DNA of 64,000 nucleotides from Candidatus Borrarchaeum weybense (GTDB taxonomy: Archaea > Asgardarchaeota > Sifarchaeia > Borrarchaeales > Borrarchaeaceae), in assembly GCA_019057385.1 (NCBI GenBank), contig JAHQJS010000004.1, positions 192,001 through 256,000 of the forward strand, in the 5' to 3' direction. A program made the translations under genes and the position numbers. The notes beneath the pieces are model-generated. The model saw only the letters and a program-made list of their open reading frames with translations, was not told the origin of the DNA and made no database searches. Numbering within the stretch: the stretch's first letter is position 1; every line of letters begins with the position of its first letter. Shown in pieces: positions 1,621 to 8,924 of this stretch.

Positions 1621-2310
1621 GTGCAAAAACAGGGCAAAATCTCGGTGATCATCCCTACTAAGGATGAAGCAGAAAATATGATGCCGCTTGCCCTAGCACT
1701 TCACAAAGCGCTTCAGCAATTTGATTTTGATGTTATTATTATTGATGATAGCGCTTCCACTGTAACAGTTGAAACGGCAAAAAAGGCATACGATCATCTA
1801 GGTATACCTATTACTGTAAATCATCGTAAAAAATCTGGAAAGGGTTCTGCAATCAGAGATGGGTTTCGTTATGTCTCTTCTAGTGACTATATAGCAATTA
1901 TTGATGCAGACCTTCAATACCCACCTCGCAGAATTCCTGAGATGCTTAATTTATTGAATAAGAAAAATCTTGATATTGTAAATGCAAATCGAATACGACA
2001 GGATCCTCCATATCGTCGAATTCTTGGAATGTTTTTCAATCTTCTTCTCAGATTATTGTTTCACCTTCGATGGGACACACAGGCTGGCCTAAAAGTGATG
2101 CGAAGAGAAGTCACAGAGAGTATCGATTATGTTACGGATGGCTGGGCCTGGGATGTTGAATTCTTGGTTAGAGCCGTACAAAAAGGATATTCAATTGATG
2201 AATACCCGGTTGAATTCCTCCAACGCAAAAAAGGAAAAACAAAAATCAACCCACTGACAAGCACACTTTCTATGTTTTTTGCACTCCTTAAAATCCGACA
2301 AATATTGTGA
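1621..2310 (+). CDS. GT2 glycosyltransferase, DPM1/AglD-like polyprenol-phosphate sugar synthase
   Basis: ISVIIPT.DE, IIIDDS, GKGSA, IIDADLQYPP, DTQAGLK, DVEFL motifs. Confidence 0.9.
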   Translation: MQKQGKISVIIPTKDEAENMMPLALALHKALQQFDFDVIIIDDSASTVTVETAKKAYDHLGIPITVNHRKKSGKGSAIRDGFRYVSSSDYIAIIDADLQYPPRRIPEMLNLLNKKNLDIVNANRIRQDPPYRRILGMFFNLLLRLLFHLRWDTQAGLKVMRREVTESIDYVTDGWAWDVEFLVRAVQKGYSIDEYPVEFLQRKKGKTKINPLTSTLSMFFALLKIRQIL

Positions 2311-2441
2311 ACTCGTCTAATCTAGACTAATTTTTGGTTTGAAATCATCATTGATTATTTTGCGTGAGATCGATATCTGACTCAGATGATACCAAAGTAA
2401 AAGAGGTTTCTATCCAAAAAGACTATGCAAGGGTGTGAAAG

Positions 2442-3968
2442 ATGACAATCTACATGGAAGAGCGATTAGAGCACATATTATGTAAATTTTGCAATAAGCC
2501 GACAGCAATGCATGTTTGTTTGGAATGTTATTCGCTTTTTTGCGAGAGTTGTGCTCATATGGAAGTAAGCAACTATTATTTCTGTAGCATATGCTTTTCG
2601 AGTGACATTCGTAAACTGAGAAGGATCAATAAAGACATAACTAAATTGTTTTGTGGGAACTGCGGATCATCAAAGATCAAAGAAGGGAAACAAAAATTAC
2701 AATTATGTCCTGCATGTGAGTCAAGAAACTTTGAACATATTTATACACACCAACGCAACCTATTCATGAAGTATCGTGAATTCTGTGAAAAATTGAATCA
2801 TGCATTAGAGGAGTCCCAGAGATTTGTAAAAAGTCTGGGAGAATATAGAGACCTTATATTGAAGTTACGCAGTCAGGGTTATTTTACATTCCCCTTTCTT
2901 GAAAAAAACCTTCTTGAAGCATATTCTTCCTTTGGCAATATAGAAACGCAACTTATTGAGCGAGAAAGTCTATATTTAAGTTTTTTAAGACGATATATGA
3001 TGGATTTCTTGAATAAGAAGCAAATTCTCCCCTTTCTATTCAAGAATTATAAGGAAAAACTAGAAAGAATTGATGAAGCATGTACAGTCTACAAAACTAG
3101 CGTTGATAAATTATTTGAAGGTTTTGAGAACTCATTTGGAGAAATTGAAAGCACATTAAAGTCTCTAGAAGAGAATAAAGAGCAATTTGAAGAGCGGAAA
3201 GAGGTGCTTAGTTTAGGACTGAAAGAAAAGCCAATATGTAATCTTCCTGACATTACTTGTAAATTAAATAGATCGTCTTTTCCAGTAAAAACAGGTCGTG
3301 GACATCTTTTCTTTACGAATTATCGCCTGGTTTTTATTGCAAACAAAGGATTAGTGTCCAAAAATTCAGTAAAATTATTTGAACTACCTATTTCAAAAAT
3401 CGTTGGTTGTTCAATACGTAAAAGAAAATTTTCTAAAAAACTTCTTCTCAAAACAACGAAAGGCTTAATCAGCTTTTCTGGGGACATGAATACTTTGAAA
3501 GAATTTGTACAACATATCAAATGTATGAAAGAATGGGAGCAAAATTGTGTTAAAGAAGATGTCATAGAGGAGTTAAAGCGCTGTACGATCACTTTATCTG
3601 AAATCAAACGCAAAACGGATAGGGATATTCAAGAATTGCTGGAAAATAAGCACACAAAGATGTTCGATGTCTCACTAAGACCAAGACTAAGATTTCGTGA
3701 TAAAATCTATGGAACGATAAGTCCTTTAGGTCCTATAGGTCCTAATATACGGCCCCGTGTAGGACCTGTACCCTCTCATTTGGCAGAAGAGATCGAACGA
3801 TTAAAACGTGAAATACATTCAATAGAGAAGACCATCGAACTACTGGACGCAAAATTCAAATCAGGAGGAATCCCTAAGGAATATTATCTACAAAAATATC
3901 GCACATTAACTGCAGAATTATATCAGCTTAAAACACAACTCGATGAGCTGAGCGGTGTAAAACGGTAA
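2442..3968 (+). CDS. Multidomain ESCRT-associated protein: multi-CxxC Zn fingers, coiled coil, PH/GRAM(GLUE)-like domain, Pro/Gly linker, C-terminal steadiness box (Vps23/Vps37 core-like)
   Basis: Six CxxC pairs in aa 13-92; GRGHLFFTNYRLVF (GRAM/GLUE-like strand pair); C-terminal SIEKTIELLDAKFKSGGIPKEYYLQKYRTLTAELYQLK matches the Vps23-core helix-G-helix pattern; adjacent to ESCRT-III. Confidence 0.7.
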   Translation: MTIYMEERLEHILCKFCNKPTAMHVCLECYSLFCESCAHMEVSNYYFCSICFSSDIRKLRRINKDITKLFCGNCGSSKIKEGKQKLQLCPACESRNFEHIYTHQRNLFMKYREFCEKLNHALEESQRFVKSLGEYRDLILKLRSQGYFTFPFLEKNLLEAYSSFGNIETQLIERESLYLSFLRRYMMDFLNKKQILPFLFKNYKEKLERIDEACTVYKTSVDKLFEGFENSFGEIESTLKSLEENKEQFEERKEVLSLGLKEKPICNLPDITCKLNRSSFPVKTGRGHLFFTNYRLVFIANKGLVSKNSVKLFELPISKIVGCSIRKRKFSKKLLLKTTKGLISFSGDMNTLKEFVQHIKCMKEWEQNCVKEDVIEELKRCTITLSEIKRKTDRDIQELLENKHTKMFDVSLRPRLRFRDKIYGTISPLGPIGPNIRPRVGPVPSHLAEEIERLKREIHSIEKTIELLDAKFKSGGIPKEYYLQKYRTLTAELYQLKTQLDELSGVKR

Positions 3969-3992
3969 AAACATCTAACCTTACCTTAGAAA

Positions 3993-4030
3993 CTGTTTTT
4001 CCCTTTTTTCTTATAAAATAAGAAATTTAA
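3993..4030. terminator. Putative shared terminator region between convergent genes
   Basis: T-tracts plus short inverted repeat TTTCTTAT-AAA-ATAAGAAA between stops at 3968 and 4061. Confidence 0.35.
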
Positions 4031-4060
4031 AAGAAAGCATACTACATTCTATGCTTGTGT

Positions 4061-4729
4061 TTATCCACCAAGTTCGCGTTCCAATTCCTTTCGCAGTTTT
4101 TCAAGTTCTTTTGTGTCTGTCTTTTTCTTTTCTGGCTTTTCGGTTTCACGGACTGGTTCTGTATCAATCGGGGGTGTGATATCAGGCAGTTCCGTTTCTG
4201 ATTCAATGGAAAGTTCGCCCATGAGTGCTTCCATTTCCGCATCAAGTCCGGATTCTTCTTCAAAGTCTAATTCGCTTTCTGCGAAACTTGTATCACCTAG
4301 GATCTCATCAGTCATTGAGATGCGTTCTATTCCTTCCTGACTGCGAAGCATAGTTTTCTCTATCCTCTCGGGTGAGGCTGCCTTAAGCGCATCTTGTATG
4401 GCAACATCAGCCTCTTCCATTGCATTTGCAACATCGATGTTAGAACCCGCTGTCTCAAGGGCAGAAATGGTTCGTTGCAGGTTGAAGACTTTATTGTAAG
4501 TTGTGTTCATCTGTTTTAGATAGAGTTGACGACGCATAAGGGCTTGTTTGGCTGCAACTTTGTTTCCTGCTTTCAAGAACTCTTTCGCCATAACTCTTTG
4601 TTCGTCAGATTGACGTTTATACTTGACAGCTGTCACATTTAGTTTATTTATCGTACGACGAAGGACCGCTACGGTTTTTTGAGGGGTAACCTTTTTTTTC
4701 CCAAACAGTTTTTCTAAGAACTTTGGCAA
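4061..4729 (-). CDS. ESCRT-III subunit, Vps20/32/60 (Snf7)-type
   Basis: Amphipathic N-terminus FLEKLFGKKK, GNKVAAKQALMRRQLY, basic N-half and acidic C-half, MIM2-like LPDITP, terminal helix; GAGGTGA RBS before TTG start. Confidence 0.92.
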   Translation of the reverse strand: MPKFLEKLFGKKKVTPQKTVAVLRRTINKLNVTAVKYKRQSDEQRVMAKEFLKAGNKVAAKQALMRRQLYLKQMNTTYNKVFNLQRTISALETAGSNIDVANAMEEADVAIQDALKAASPERIEKTMLRSQEGIERISMTDEILGDTSFAESELDFEEESGLDAEMEALMGELSIESETELPDITPPIDTEPVRETEKPEKKKTDTKELEKLRKELERELGG

Positions 4730-4984
4730 TCAATTCACCTCATCTAGACGACGAAGTACGAGACAAAAAATTACTCTTTGATATCCCTCTATACTCATTA
4801 TTGATTGTACCTTCAAGTTATAAATCTCTTTTCTTATTTCGTGCGCGCACCCCCATCATTTACAGTTTTTATAATCAAATAGAGAAATAGCATCTCATCA
4901 ATTGCGTAACCTTCAGGGGTGCTTAAAAGAATTCTTTGAAAGAAAACTTCGATGAAAAACATTTGTTAAAGTAAAAGGATCAGA

Positions 4985-5320
4985 TTAAAGCTGTATAATT
5001 GTTTCTACTCTTTTGTCTTTGGATATTTCTGATAATAATCCCAAAAAATGCTTCTGAGCTTTTTTTAGTTCTTTAAATTTATGAAAATTCTTGATTTTTG
5101 AGTTTTCAGCAATAAAGGAGAAGTATTTTTCATCTTGACCTCGTAATAAACACAGAAAAATATCATCACTAAAGCAGACGCTCTGAATTAACTCCCATCT
5201 GTATGGAATAGGTTCACGATTCCCCCTCATCTTTGCTTTCTCCCTAGATGATTTTAAGTGGATTTGATTAGATAAAAACAACTTCAGAGCAATATCTCGA
5301 AGTAAAACAACTTTTCCCAT
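4985..5320 (-). CDS. Small hypothetical protein within the ESCRT-III locus (start may be 5230)
   Basis: ORF co-oriented with the ESCRT-III genes; no recognised motif. Confidence 0.5.
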   Translation of the reverse strand: MGKVVLLRDIALKLFLSNQIHLKSSREKAKMRGNREPIPYRWELIQSVCFSDDIFLCLLRGQDEKYFSFIAENSKIKNFHKFKELKKAQKHFLGLLSEISKDKRVETIIQL

Positions 5321-5469: not shown

Positions 5470-6537
5470 TTACATATACAGTTTATTACGTTCTTCTATC
5501 CGTTCTGCCATCCATTTACTGAATTGAGCAAGTGTAGGATCTATTTTTTTTTCTGAGTAGATCAATTCGGCAGAGGCTACTATGGAGGCGATAATATGTG
5601 CTTTATTTGCATCAGGTAGCTGTGGTATCTGTTCTAATTCTTGCTTAACGCGTTTTTCAAAATCATCAATTGTGAGTAATCCCTCCATGACCAGTCGAAA
5701 GCCAGTAAGGATATTTTCTGTGATATTTTCTAGGTCAATTTCCAAATTAAGACCCTGAAGAAATGCTAAAGTAACATTCACAGTCTCAGCATAACATTCA
5801 AAAATAAGGAGAGGATCGTCCATGCGATCTTGTGTTTGTGACAATGCAATTTCTGGTGGAATCTTCGTTTTTAATGCATGTGCAATCTTTAATTTTCCAA
5901 ATTCACGAATCGTATCTAAAAACGGAAGGATAAAAGAAAGTACTAGAGGTGCAAAATCAATATTGTTTTCTTCAAGAAGTATTTCGATTGCATCGTGGGC
6001 TTCTTCAAACGTAATTTCTTCTGTAATATACGCCTTAAAGATTTCAATAATCAATGCACGAATATGAAGGGCTAATTCATAATTTCTGAGACGCAAGGTA
6101 AGTAAAGTAAATACAGTTTCCATCAACTCTCTGTCAAAAAATGTGATAAGAATCCATTCTGCAGTTAATCCTTTAATGTCCCGTATACGTTCTTCAATAT
6201 CTGTATCTATCTCCACTTCTTTCCTAAATTGCTTTGCAAATGTGGTTAATGAATTAACAATGAATTGCTGAAGGGTATCATCAATATCAACTGTATTGTA
6301 TGTTCGTTTCATAAATGAAAATATATCTTCCTCTTTAACTGGCGCAATTAACGCGTTCTTAAAAGATTTGAGTAATTTTTCATGCAGTAAACTTCTTTTC
6401 TTTGGGGTTAGAGTTAAAACAAGTCTTTCAATTATAGGCCAGAAGACAAACTTGAAGAAATCATTTAAGAGTTCTTCATTTTCTTTTAAGAAATTGTTAG
6501 GCAAATTTACTCCCTCTTCTTTTTCAAGAGAAGACAT
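5470..6537 (-). CDS. Acidic all-helical hypothetical protein with ~3 internal repeats and C-terminal HbYX (LYM)
   Basis: Start reassigned from 6627 to MSSLEKE at 6537 by judgement; repeated F...I.xED helical segments; ends ...RNKLYM. Confidence 0.8.
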   Translation of the reverse strand: MSSLEKEEGVNLPNNFLKENEELLNDFFKFVFWPIIERLVLTLTPKKRSLLHEKLLKSFKNALIAPVKEEDIFSFMKRTYNTVDIDDTLQQFIVNSLTTFAKQFRKEVEIDTDIEERIRDIKGLTAEWILITFFDRELMETVFTLLTLRLRNYELALHIRALIIEIFKAYITEEITFEEAHDAIEILLEENNIDFAPLVLSFILPFLDTIREFGKLKIAHALKTKIPPEIALSQTQDRMDDPLLIFECYAETVNVTLAFLQGLNLEIDLENITENILTGFRLVMEGLLTIDDFEKRVKQELEQIPQLPDANKAHIIASIVASAELIYSEKKIDPTLAQFSKWMAERIEERNKLYM

Positions 6538-6720
6538 GATAATTTGTGCTTTCCAAAATCGTTTAAAAAATCTCATAATATGGCCTGTGACACATAGAGA
6601 GCTCAATCTTTTCAAAGAAAAAGACAAGCTTCTATAAAATATACATTAATCTCTGTATCGAACCTAATTTGAATCTAGTGTAAATAAAAGAATACAGCGT
6701 TGATGGAAATAAAAGACTAA

Positions 6721-7374
6721 TCAGTCTTCTTTCAGTTTTTCAATTTCTTTTTGTAGTTCTTTTGATCTAATATCTGGAGAAGGTAGTCCTGTTTCGGCAT
6801 GTACACTCCTTTCAGCGCCAAGTTCCACCATTATCTTATCTACTTCAGTATCCTCGACATCTGCTGCCATTGTACCCTCAAGTCCATCTTCCATCACTTC
6901 ACTAGTGATATCTGCCTCACCGAGCACGCCTTCTAGTTCATTGATAGTTTGTCCAAGTTCAGGCGCTTTAATTTGTGCATTAACTGTACGTAATGACCTG
7001 ATAACCCATTTGAGATCTTTTCCCAGATCACCTACTGCTTGTGCACGTTCCAACTTAAATTGTAGACCATTGATCCTGCTCTGTAATTGACTGTAGCCCA
7101 TGGCCCATCGCCGATAGCGTGCTGCATCTGTTGCATACATCCTTCCATTGTCTAAATTTCCCTGTTGAATCTCTCCACGCGCTTCACGAAGCATTTTTCT
7201 TTCTTTGTTTTTTAGTTTCTTTTTCTGACGCTCAAGTCTTCTGTCCGTGAGTTTTAAGTTTATGATCAAATCCTGAAGGCTTTTTCCTCCACCAAGCCAG
7301 CTCATAAATCTTTTGAATACTATTTTAATCACTTCTTTTACGATCTTTCTTTTATCTAAGAAAAGATCACGCAT
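6721..7374 (-). CDS. ESCRT-III subunit, Vps2/24/46-type (true start probably ~7305-7323)
   Basis: LIINLKLTDRRLERQKKKL..KE, GNLDNGRMYATDAARYRR, L.SRINGL, EVDKIMVEL, C-terminal MIM1-like ELQKEIEKLK. Confidence 0.92.
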   Translation of the reverse strand: MRDLFLDKRKIVKEVIKIVFKRFMSWLGGGKSLQDLIINLKLTDRRLERQKKKLKNKERKMLREARGEIQQGNLDNGRMYATDAARYRRWAMGYSQLQSRINGLQFKLERAQAVGDLGKDLKWVIRSLRTVNAQIKAPELGQTINELEGVLGEADITSEVMEDGLEGTMAADVEDTEVDKIMVELGAERSVHAETGLPSPDIRSKELQKEIEKLKED

Positions 7375-7472: not shown

Positions 7473-8924
7473 TTAAGGGGTGAAGAGATAGACTTTAATG
7501 CTATGAGGTTCTGCCATTAATTCACAATCAGACTCAAGCCACGCTCTAAACTCATAATCTGGATCAATAGATGGTATTCTAGCGTTGTCAATCAGTAACC
7601 ACACTTTTTCTTCAGAATTCTGTATCTCTTCAAGGACACTAGGTTCAAAAAATTCAATAGATAATCTGTAATCGACTTTCCCCAAATAATACTCAACAGC
7701 CTTATCACCTGTAGTTGCAATGAGATCTTCCGGTTCCATATTAGATGTAACATATGCACAGGCAGATTTCCAATCTGGATGGATTTCCTTTGTATAATGC
7801 TCAAAGAGGGCAGGTAGGTTAATTATACTAATAACCGTAGCAAATACAAATCCTAGGGCTAAGAACTTGTTTAACTCCAGATTCTTTAACATTATAACGT
7901 GAAATTTCTTTTCTTTTGCACTTTTCATAATTCTTTCAAAGATTTCTATTATGAGACTAGATGACAATAGTGCAAAAGCGGGCAAAGTAAAAATAACATA
8001 TCGAGGAACAACATTGGTTACAAATGTAAGCACAGAAACCGTAGCCACAGGAATCGCTGCATAGCCCGTTAATAAGTAGCCCGCTTTATTTTTTTGTGAA
8101 ATTAAATAAATTGCACTAACTACGGAGAATAGCGATAACGTTGGTCCAAAAGTGTCTTCAAATAGCGTCAAGAAATAAATGTGGATAGGCAATCCCCATC
8201 TTGAGCTTGTGCCTCCAATCTTGAATGTTAGTGTCTGGGGAATAATGGTAAGAAACAGTGGCAAGGTAAAGATAAAGAACAAAGCAAAAAAGATTATAAG
8301 ATATTTATAATTGATGCTAATTTCTATTTTCTCAAAAAACTTTATTGAGATCAACCAAGCAGCTATTATTACTAGGATAAGAATAGCTAAATAATGCGTA
8401 TAAAAGGCAAGTATAGTAAATAATACCGAAAGTACGTAAGATGTGAGCGTTGTTTTATAAATTGTACGATAAAAGAAATATAAGGCTAAGATGGTAAAAA
8501 CCGTTAATTCAGTATACATTCTTGCTTCTTGAGACCATCTAATATACCATGGAGATAAGGAAATTATAAAAGAGGCAACCAAGCCTTCTTTTTCGCCAAA
8601 TAGTTGTTTTCCAAAAAAATAGATTAAAGGTATTGTAGCAATGCCAAATAGGCATGAGGGAAGTCGTGCAGTAAATTCTGTCGTTCCTAGAGTTTCTATT
8701 ACGATCCTAAGGATCAGGAAAGAGAGCGGTGGATGTGAGATGTTGTATAAATTGCCTCTAGCATCCAGAATAGATGAGGCTTCGTCATACCAAAAACTTT
8801 GAGCACCTAATTTGTAAAACCTCAAAACTGCTCCAATAATGGTAATTAAAATGATAAGAAAAATGTTCAACGTACGTGGAGCTGATAAATTGCGCTTAAT
8901 TGAGGTTTTTGTAAGCATTTTCAC
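7473..8924 (-). CDS. GT-C membrane glycosyltransferase (PMT/ArnT-like)
   Basis: LRFYKLG.QSFWYDE, HPPL, EFTARLPS, SQEARMY, YTHY motifs; multiple TM segments. Confidence 0.88.
   Translation of the reverse strand: MKMLTKTSIKRNLSAPRTLNIFLIILITIIGAVLRFYKLGAQSFWYDEASSILDARGNLYNISHPPLSFLILRIVIETLGTTEFTARLPSCLFGIATIPLIYFFGKQLFGEKEGLVASFIISLSPWYIRWSQEARMYTELTVFTILALYFFYRTIYKTTLTSYVLSVLFTILAFYTHYLAILILVIIAAWLISIKFFEKIEISINYKYLIIFFALFFIFTLPLFLTIIPQTLTFKIGGTSSRWGLPIHIYFLTLFEDTFGPTLSLFSVVSAIYLISQKNKAGYLLTGYAAIPVATVSVLTFVTNVVPRYVIFTLPAFALLSSSLIIEIFERIMKSAKEKKFHVIMLKNLELNKFLALGFVFATVISIINLPALFEHYTKEIHPDWKSACAYVTSNMEPEDLIATTGDKAVEYYLGKVDYRLSIEFFEPSVLEEIQNSEEKVWLLIDNARIPSIDPDYEFRAWLESDCELMAEPHSIKVYLFTP

Follow-up and report, generated by a model that had tools for sequence, protein, structure and literature searches.

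The open reading frame at 2442-3968 of the window (the whole stretch of 64,000 nucleotides that was analysed) encodes the sole member of the family Znr_CC_PH_SB (asCOG cog.011556) in Candidatus Borrarchaeum weybense, and its product probably serves the ESCRT machinery as an adaptor close to the membrane. This Asgard family, whose name is also spelled Znr_PH_CC_SB, was defined by Makarova et al. 2024 (mBio, PMC10936438), who described it computationally and proposed that it is a membrane-associated ESCRT-I component. The earlier note on this DNA had suggested a fused ESCRT-I/II-type adaptor; our analysis supports that idea, which is right but not new, since the same inference had already been published for Znr_CC_PH_SB. 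Both the family and its likely ESCRT role have been known since 2024. What is added here is a phylum-wide count, a conserved tail-to-tail pairing with ESCRT-III and a variant of the family that ends in wH-wH domains. For the open reading frame itself the outcome is mainly a correct annotation, while the three additions could guide experiments; our literature search turned up no experiments on the family and no binding, lipid or ubiquitin results for any member. The features discussed below are as follows.

2442..3968, + strand: Znr_CC_PH_SB-family gene, 508 aa (open reading frame and translation; homologs found)
2481..2594, + strand: first eight cysteines (C14-C51), C-x2-C-x8-C-x2-C-x4-C-x2-C-x10-C-x2-C, Cys invariant
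2652..2717, + strand: third predicted Zn site, C71/C74 ... C89-P-x-C92, zinc-ribbon-like beta hairpins
2739..3209, + strand: helical region of four helices (aa 100-256), called 'CC' in the name under which the family was published (AF2 DSSP, pLDDT >90)
3225..3536, + strand: GRAM/GLUE-class PH domain (aa 262-365; Pfam, Foldseek, VIA, PH profile against PDB)
3660..3773, + strand: disordered Pro/Gly-rich linker (aa 407-444; pLDDT <50)
3774..3962, + strand: steadiness-box (SB) helical hairpin (aa 445-507; Pfam, profile against PDB, own Vps23)
4061..4729, - strand: ESCRT-III gene, Vps20/32/60 type (Snf7/CHMP4, 'ESCRT-IIIB'; Pfam Snf7 1.5e-18)
6721..7374, - strand: second ESCRT-III gene, Vps2/24/46 type (CHMP1/2/3, 'ESCRT-IIIA'; Pfam Snf7 1.2e-13)

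A search of the organism's own genome with the family profile returned one full-length match only, so the gene is single copy. Searching the PDB with the single 508-aa sequence gave matches at noise level only. The AF2 model of the protein has a mean pLDDT of 88.8 and a pTM of 0.71.

The N-terminal cluster with three Zn sites that marks the family is present as six CxxC pairs (C14/17, C26/29, C34/37, C48/51, C71/74 and C89/92). These pairs, including the CxxCxxxxCxxC at 26-37, had been recognized earlier, and all 12 cysteines proved invariant in 34 diverse homologs, as did the CPxC motif of the third site. That third site consists of beta hairpins with pLDDT >90 in the AF2 model and is matched by Pfam Zn_Ribbon_TF and DZR in some of 70 family members. 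The first eight cysteines form a predicted binuclear Zn module resembling B-box, RING and ZZ domains, and their spacing fits the cross-brace ligands of B-box and RING. Makarova et al. 2024 (PMC10936438) read the module as three Zn ribbons, whereas the first eight cysteines may instead make up a cross-brace of the B-box/RING/ZZ kind, which they resemble more than a pair of separate ribbons.

Such a module raises the prospect of a RING/B-box-type E3 or E2-docking domain, in which case the product would chiefly be an enzyme or adaptor of the ubiquitin pathway, brought to ESCRT sites by its PH domain and hairpin. Profile matches in the PDB to the RNF4 RING (8e-7), the TRIM2 B-box (9e-6) and TRIM21 (8e-5) point in this direction, but Cys content biases these scores upwards. 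Of the 70 family members, 19 are matched by Pfam zf-B_box (in one case above the cut-off) and 12 by an ANCHR-like B-box. A ubiquitin/RING/JAB set accompanies the ESCRT-I/II genes of the same genome. Matches by VIA are mostly to ZZ, RING and B-box domains, yet they are structurally weak (Z <=4.8), and Foldseek against the PDB found no match below E 0.1 for the module folded alone. In the full-length AF2 model the module is nearly all beta hairpins, its one helical element being a short turn at 35-37, and a complete central helix, as RING domains usually have, is absent. With the published reading as ribbons also standing against it, we regard this explanation of the protein as unlikely.

The cluster is followed, as in the rest of the family, by a helical or coiled-coil region and then a PH domain (AF2 pLDDT >90 for both, structural matches at Z 12-13 for the latter). 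A helical stalk of ~150 aa had been noted here. Helices are indeed predicted at 100-116, 119-144, 152-184 and 197-251, but a free coiled-coil stalk is not what AF2 builds, as it places these helices beside the PH domain. DH-PH (RhoGEF) structures top the Foldseek list for the AF2 model; a DH-like reading of the region was rejected, and no DH homology is claimed because the VIA rmsd is at least 5.8 A when both domains are aligned.

The PH domain is a seven-strand beta domain with a C-terminal helix (aa 264-363 in the AF2 model) and contains the GRGHLFFTNYRLVF motif, from which membership in the GRAM/GLUE class had been suspected; VIA, Foldseek and the PH profile agree with that assignment. In VIA the best match was the GRAM-PH domain of MTMR2 (Z 13.4, rmsd 2.6 over 109 residues), with the EAP45 GLUE domain (108 residues aligned) and Lam6 both at Z 12.4, and Foldseek recovered the Vps36 GLUE structures 2cay (TMt 0.61) and 2hth (TMt 0.65). 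The PH profile matched bacterial PH domains and the yeast Vps36 GLUE domain (E 0.0075) in the PDB and nothing else. GRAM and bacterial PH domains score equal to or above Vps36 GLUE. With the single sequence, Pfam GRAM (PF02893; E 4e-4, 20.6 bits where the cut-off is 23.6) and bPH_3 (E 0.046) are both sub-threshold.

The linker between the PH domain and the steadiness box ranges from ~50 to ~385 aa across the family. In the protein studied here, pLDDT is <50 at 407-440, which spans most of the Pro/Gly stretch at 426-443 and agrees with its earlier reading as a linker. A stalk helix directly before the box is absent from the AF2 model, which has this disordered segment instead. The placement of the hairpin after a disordered linker, and not after a coiled-coil stalk as in Vps23 and Vps37, counts against the adaptor reading.

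The C-terminus itself forms a hairpin in the AF2 model, in which the turn KSGGIPK joins helix 445-473 to helix 479-507, just as the helix-GG-helix pattern had implied. Its identification as a Vps23-type steadiness box, the C-terminal mark of the family, is confirmed by a C-terminal profile whose top PDB matches are the Vps23 core (E 1.3e-6), TSG101 (5.9e-5) and VPS37B (0.03), all spanning the entire hairpin including the conserved G-x-I turn. Within the same genome the family profile also picks up the C-terminus of Vps23 (E 1.8e-11), BLASTP aligns the hairpin with that C-terminus at 30% identity (E 2e-5), and hhalign pairs it with the Vps28 N-terminus at a probability of 55%. Pfam Vps23_core (PF09454) does not reach its gathering score with the single sequence (E 0.0019, 18.6 bits against 26.8) and is found at E <=0.01 in 14 of 70 family members, the best at E 7e-6. 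The sub-threshold GRAM and Vps23_core scores likewise count against the adaptor reading. An ABC_tran_CTD coiled-coil match on the same residues is as weak as the Vps23_core match. A complex prediction with the organism's own Vps23 C-terminus, Vps28 N-terminus and the hairpin (score 0.09, mark 0.32) speaks neither for nor against binding.

The gene converges on the Snf7-type gene at 4061..4729 as previously described, the two lying tail-to-tail with a 92-nt spacer. The product of this neighbour matches Heimdall ESCRT-IIIB (5e-37) and yeast Snf7 (1.8e-8) in the PDB, and that of the second ESCRT-III gene matches CHMP1B (4e-13) and CHMP2A (9e-13); a genome-wide Snf7 search found these two genes only. 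The same contig carries, 58-68 kb upstream, the UEV-Vps23, Vps28, Vps22, Vps25 and Vps4 genes together with the ubiquitin/RING/JAB set. Of these, Vps22 is a 245-aa protein covered over nearly its full length by EAP30. Scanning 2200-4900 for promoters and terminators revealed no signal above that of shuffled sequence.

The pairing is conserved. Among 20 diverse family loci, an ESCRT-III gene lies within ~5 kb in 13, tail-to-tail in 12 of those 13, and within the phylum this arrangement recurs in five families or more. Some loci have Vps4, Vps25, Vps22, Vps23 and Vps28 in their wider surroundings as well, and the gene's neighbours in one large family are ESCRT-III, Vps4, Vps25 and a Vps22 that is probably fused to a steadiness box (SB-Vps22). 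The survey thus bears out an ESCRT linkage of the homologs in many lineages. An apparent Vps28 linkage in one large family was rejected: the open reading frames of 250-277 aa at the same offset from the gene match Vps22, so that the 'Vps28-like' matches in all likelihood reflect the box of SB-Vps22 fusions and not Vps28. Gene order also ties the protein to a published member. Makarova 2024 (PMC10936438) gives the order L35Ae, gene, MetE and a reversed Vps20 for the Lokiarchaeum GC14_75 member, As_004-p_01543. Homolog P0021 (E 1.3e-28 to the query) stands in the order L35Ae, PHP_C, gene, MetE and a reversed Snf7, differing by the extra PHP_C alone, and orthology to the listed member is judged from this gene order and the match to P0021.

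Could the hairpin be a generic coiled coil and the ESCRT-III adjacency incidental? The sub-threshold Vps23_core score, the equally weak ABC_tran_CTD match and the several loci without an ESCRT neighbour (e.g. L014, L105-L107) would suit a protein with no relation to ESCRT. This explanation is already disfavoured and we hold it to be highly improbable, given the matches to Vps23, TSG101 and VPS37B over the entire hairpin, the match of the family profile to the organism's own Vps23, the recurrent tail-to-tail pairing and, in one lineage, the replacement of the hairpin by an ESCRT-II module.

The family is nearly universal in the phylum, with a match in 341 of 400 Asgard genomes, in 75 of 85 genera and in 79 of 90 high-quality genomes. 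Homologs at E <=1e-3 fall into 81 representative clusters, and chance is excluded by these clusters together with the matches in 341 genomes. One large Asgard family lacks the gene altogether (0 of 22 genomes). Vps28 was matched in all eight genomes of that family that were searched, and Asgard ESCRT-I therefore does not strictly depend on the Znr_CC_PH_SB gene.

Three MAGs, one of them labelled Hodarchaeota, encode a variant (P0049, P0097 and P0098) that ends in Vps22-like wH-wH domains in place of the steadiness box. The resulting architecture, Zn-helical-PH followed by wH-wH, resembles the GLUE plus wH-wH of Vps36. The variant genes hold the same genomic position as the SB-ended family members, no SB-ended copy was found in the three MAGs, and a separate Vps22 accompanies the variant. 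We tentatively suggest that Zn-helical-PH may be a swappable membrane-targeting cassette, used for ESCRT-I via the steadiness box or for ESCRT-II, and that the variant may be an archaeal subunit of the Vps36 type, which is said in the literature to be missing from Asgard archaea. If so, the GLUE domain of Vps36 would derive from the Znr_CC_PH_SB family, and the protein described here would be the ancestral-type ESCRT-I/II bridge.

The variant also bears on whether the protein acts on the ESCRT-II side, as a Vps36-like bridge and not as an ESCRT-I subunit, with its PH domain on the membrane and its hairpin on SB-bearing Vps22 or Vps25, feeding ESCRT-III nucleation. Since the conserved neighbour is ESCRT-III, joined in some lineages by Vps4, Vps25 and Vps22, and not Vps23 or Vps28, the docking partner may not be the ESCRT-I headpiece. 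Fusions of the steadiness box to Asgard versions of Vps22 and Vps25 (Makarova 2024, PMC10936438) and the large family with SB-Vps22 next to the gene fit the same arrangement, as does the substitution seen in the three MAGs. The hairpin sequence, however, is closest to Vps23-type boxes, the organism's own Vps23 included, and its own Vps22 has no obvious steadiness box. A role confined to the ESCRT-II side is possible but doubtful.

In the protein, a compact N-terminal unit, predicted to bind three zinc ions through its 12 invariant cysteines and carrying the GRAM/GLUE-class PH domain, is joined to a Vps23-type hairpin tethered by a flexible linker of variable length. The Zn module might bind ubiquitin, cargo or an E2. 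The PH domain would place the protein on the membrane, and the hairpin may dock on steadiness-box proteins of the same cell, namely Vps23, Vps28 or SB-bearing versions of Vps22 or Vps25. Once docked, it could take the role of eukaryotic Vps37, as the third hairpin of the headpiece, and/or that of the Vps36 GLUE domain, and so couple upstream ESCRT-I/II to ESCRT-III assembly.

Asgard ESCRT-I and ESCRT-II attract study as forerunners of the sorting machinery of eukaryotes. According to Hatano 2022, Asgard archaea have neither Vps37 nor a full-length Vps36 bearing a GLUE domain. Being nearly universal and combining a GLUE/GRAM-class PH domain with a steadiness box, the family is the obvious candidate for one or both of these gaps. 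The protein shows no essential difference from Znr_CC_PH_SB (PMC10936438): the same set in the same order (three Zn sites, helical region, PH, steadiness box), restriction of the family to Asgard archaea, and in GC14_75 a member that likewise converges on a Vps20-type ESCRT-III gene. With 508 aa it is shorter than the GC14_75 member (651 aa), owing to its short linker between PH domain and box.

Among eukaryotic systems, Vps23/TSG101 and Vps37 (PF09454) share the C-terminal hairpin, with its conserved turn and heptad pattern, and provide the best PDB match. Unlike them, the protein has no UEV (neither UEV nor UQ_con was matched by Pfam) and carries a disordered linker before the box, and its combination of Zn fingers and PH is found in no eukaryotic ESCRT-I subunit. 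Vps36/EAP45 shares a PH domain of the GLUE/GRAM class, and yeast Vps36 also has Zn fingers in the same polypeptide, but these are NZF inserts in the PH domain and not N-terminal. Vps36 further consists of GLUE plus two winged helices, whereas Pfam found no EAP30 match here; only the P0049/P0097/P0098 variant has Vps22-like wH-wH domains. The best structural matches of the PH domain are GRAM folds (myotubularins, Lam/GRAMD) and bacterial PH domains (bPH_3, DUF1696), with which it has the motif G-x-L-x-x-T-x-x-R-L-x-F in common, although its sequence scores lie under the Pfam cut-offs of those families. Unlike GRAM proteins, it has no phosphatase or lipid-transfer module, and its context is ESCRT.

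The 508-aa protein encoded at 2442-3968 belongs to the Znr_CC_PH_SB family. Its domain composition, conservation and ESCRT gene context were all observed, and they support the earlier note's reading of it as a candidate Zn-finger, PH and steadiness-box ESCRT adaptor. Both the family and the adaptor idea had been published before: Makarova et al. (2024, mBio, PMC10936438) defined asCOG cog.011556, a family restricted to Asgard archaea in which three Zn ribbons are followed by a coiled coil, a PH domain and a steadiness box. They regard it as missing from eukaryotes and probably ancestral in Asgard, and suggest that it belongs to ESCRT-I, with membrane binding expected of its PH domain. In their table, the Lokiarchaeum GC14_75 member lies in the order L35Ae, gene, MetE, convergent Vps20-type ESCRT-III gene, and the homolog P0021 has this same order plus one PHP_C gene after L35Ae. 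Given that description and the shared gene order, the earlier interpretation is the published one. A literature search turned up no experiments on the family, whose biology makes an attractive subject for them.

The gene and its surroundings in the window are as follows.

1-1509 and 7473-8924 (both minus strand): large multi-pass membrane protein and PMT_2-type glycosyltransferase, near the Znr_CC_PH_SB gene
1621-2310 (plus strand): GT2 glycosyltransferase, directly upstream of the Znr_CC_PH_SB gene and syntenic in the related locus L013
2442-3968 (plus strand): Znr_CC_PH_SB-family gene, ORF of 508 aa
4061-4729 (minus strand): Snf7-family gene (E 1.5e-18)
4985-5320 (minus strand): 111-aa ORF between the two ESCRT-III genes
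5470-6627 (minus strand): all-helical 385-aa ORF between the two ESCRT-III genes

All the features read earlier from the sequence were recovered in the ORF: six CxxC pairs (C14/17, C26/29, C34/37, C48/51, C71/74 and C89/92), the GRGHLFFTNYRLVF motif, a Pro/Gly-rich stretch and a C-terminal helix-GG-helix. AlphaFold2, using an alignment of 70 homologs, gave a confident model (mean pLDDT 88.8, pTM 0.71) with beta hairpins (residues 10-99), four helices (100-256), a beta domain of seven strands and a C-terminal helix (264-363), short helices up to residue 409, disorder at 407-440 and a helical hairpin (445-473 and 479-507).

The C-terminal hairpin (445-507) is a steadiness box, as had been proposed. 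A profile of 34 C-termini searched against the PDB matched the yeast Vps23 core best (E 1.3e-6), followed by TSG101 (5.9e-5) and VPS37B (0.03), with alignments spanning the entire hairpin. Within its own genome, where the family gene is present in a single copy, the full-family profile also matched the C-terminus of the UEV-Vps23 protein (E 1.8e-11), and BLASTP of the two C-termini gave 30% identity (E 2e-5). Alignment with the N-terminal hairpin of the genome's Vps28 was weak (hhalign probability 55%).

In the predicted structure, the beta domain adopts a GRAM/GLUE-class PH fold, in agreement with the domain type suggested earlier. VIA-align matched the model to MTMR2 GRAM-PH (Z 13.4, rmsd 2.6, 109 residues), EAP45 GLUE (Z 12.4) and Lam6 (Z 12.4), while Foldseek found Vps36 GLUE (2cay, TMt 0.61; 2hth, TMt 0.65). 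Searched against the whole PDB sequence set, the family PH-domain profile matched only four chains: two bacterial PH domains and two of yeast Vps36 (E 0.0075 and 0.018).

In the Zn module, 12 of 12 Cys are invariant across 34 diverse family members, and the spacing of the first eight is compatible with B-box/RING-type binuclear fingers. Pfam zf-B_box matched 19 of 70 members and an ANCHR-like B-box 12; PDB matches of the module profile were to RING and B-box chains, with strongly Cys-biased scores. Folded alone (pLDDT 92.7), the module gave no significant Foldseek match and weak VIA matches (Z ≤4.8), mainly to ZZ, RING and B-box domains. It may comprise a cross-brace domain and a single ribbon, or the three ribbons of the published description.

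Convergence on the Snf7-type gene was confirmed, the two stop codons lying 92 nt apart. This neighbor is of the Vps20/32/60 type (Heimdall ESCRT-IIIB 5e-37, Snf7 1.8e-8). A genome-wide search found just one other ESCRT-III gene, of the Vps2/24/46 type (CHMP1B 4e-13), also in the window. The two ORFs between them had no Pfam match at E ≤ 0.1; in L013, the corresponding interval is occupied by other genes, namely ORFs of 83 aa and 345 aa and a HerA/DUF87-like ORF of 906 aa. With GT2 and the PMT_2-type enzyme nearby, the ESCRT-III locus is flanked by glycosylation genes. The main ubiquitin-ESCRT cluster is separate: it lies on the same contig, 58-68 kb upstream (G000:C4:124000-135200; loci L016, L017, L019), and comprises RING, ubiquitin, JAB, a coiled-coil ORF, UEV-Vps23, Vps28 and Vps22, with Vps25 and Vps4 following on the opposite strand.

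In many Asgard lineages, the homologs proved to be ESCRT-linked. We took 20 genomes representing ten families and searched the roughly 17 kb surrounding the gene with the ESCRT proteins of this genome; 13 of the 20 loci have an ESCRT-III gene no more than about 5 kb away. The arrangement was tail-to-tail in 12 of these, in many cases with a gap of 7-100 nt; at the remaining locus, L104, the gene is convergent with Vps25/Vps4 instead. Locus L013, from a relative 50% identical, is syntenic with the window (GT2, gene, convergent Snf7, second Snf7, adenine deaminase). One large family has the order SB-Vps22, Vps25, Vps4, ESCRT-III, Znr_CC_PH_SB gene, and one 9.5-kb contig carries the gene with Vps25, Vps4, both ESCRT-III genes, Vps23, Vps28 and Vps22. 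Some fetched loci had no ESCRT gene nearby. In family f8 (L077, L084, L088, L089), Vps23 and Vps28 are fused in a single 469-489-aa ORF, which agrees with the UEV-Vps23-Vps28 fusion reported in Heimdallarchaeota (Hatano 2022).

Among 1.8 billion representative proteins, the homologs fall into 81 clusters, the close relatives being annotated "hypothetical protein", Promethearchaeota. In a survey of 400 genomes of this phylum, the family profile matched 341 (75 of 85 genera; 79 of 90 high-quality genomes) at E ≤ 1e-10; a handful of these matches, with E around 1e-11 to 1e-12, may come from steadiness boxes in other proteins. Family f11 (genus g21) had no match in 22 genomes at this threshold; Vps28 was matched in all eight of its genomes searched, and at each of the loci fetched Vps23 lies next to it. 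The absence looks like a lineage-specific loss.

Asgard archaea are described as lacking Vps37 and full-length Vps36 (Hatano et al. 2022). In the working mode we propose, the PH domain would bind the membrane and the tethered hairpin would dock on the steadiness boxes of Vps23/Vps28, in a Vps37-like position. Alternatively, the hairpin might dock on SB-bearing versions of Vps22/Vps25 as a Vps36-like bridge. The Zn module could bind ubiquitin, cargo or an E2.

In one homolog, P0049 (601 aa), the Zn-helical-PH module is retained and the C-terminus consists of EAP30 winged helices (Pfam EAP30 1.8e-11; phmmer against the Vps22 of this genome, 3e-29), with no steadiness box; its PH part matched Pfam Vps36_ESCRT-II (GLUE) below the cut-off (E 1.8e-4). 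Two relatives from other samples, P0097 and P0098 (76% and 65% identity), share this architecture, so an assembly error is unlikely. The variant occurs in three GenBank MAGs: H2M.186 and H2M.176, both labelled Promethearchaeota, and DZ1B.307, which carries the label Candidatus Hodarchaeota. Loci with the variant are listed below.

L059:6001-7806 (JBHLPL010000001.1): variant gene
L060:6001-7815: variant gene
L061:4159-5613: variant gene
L012:1641-3446: variant gene
L058:1185-3002: variant gene

The variant genes occupy the position of the SB-ended gene (Metallophos, gene, convergent OB-fold gene and Snf7). Their genomes also carry a separate Vps22 gene of 248 aa and, at a distance of about 7-10 kb, a Vps23-Vps28-Vps22 cluster; no SB-ended family copy was found in them. 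We found no description of this variant in a literature search.

The 508-aa protein shares its Zn sites, helical region, PH domain and steadiness box with cog.011556. The variant resembles Vps36/EAP45 in combining a GLUE-like PH domain with EAP30 winged helices; these are Vps22-like, being closer in sequence to Vps22/SNF8 (1e-6) than to Vps36 (6.5e-4), and the variant is therefore best described as Vps36-like in architecture rather than as a demonstrated Vps36 ortholog.
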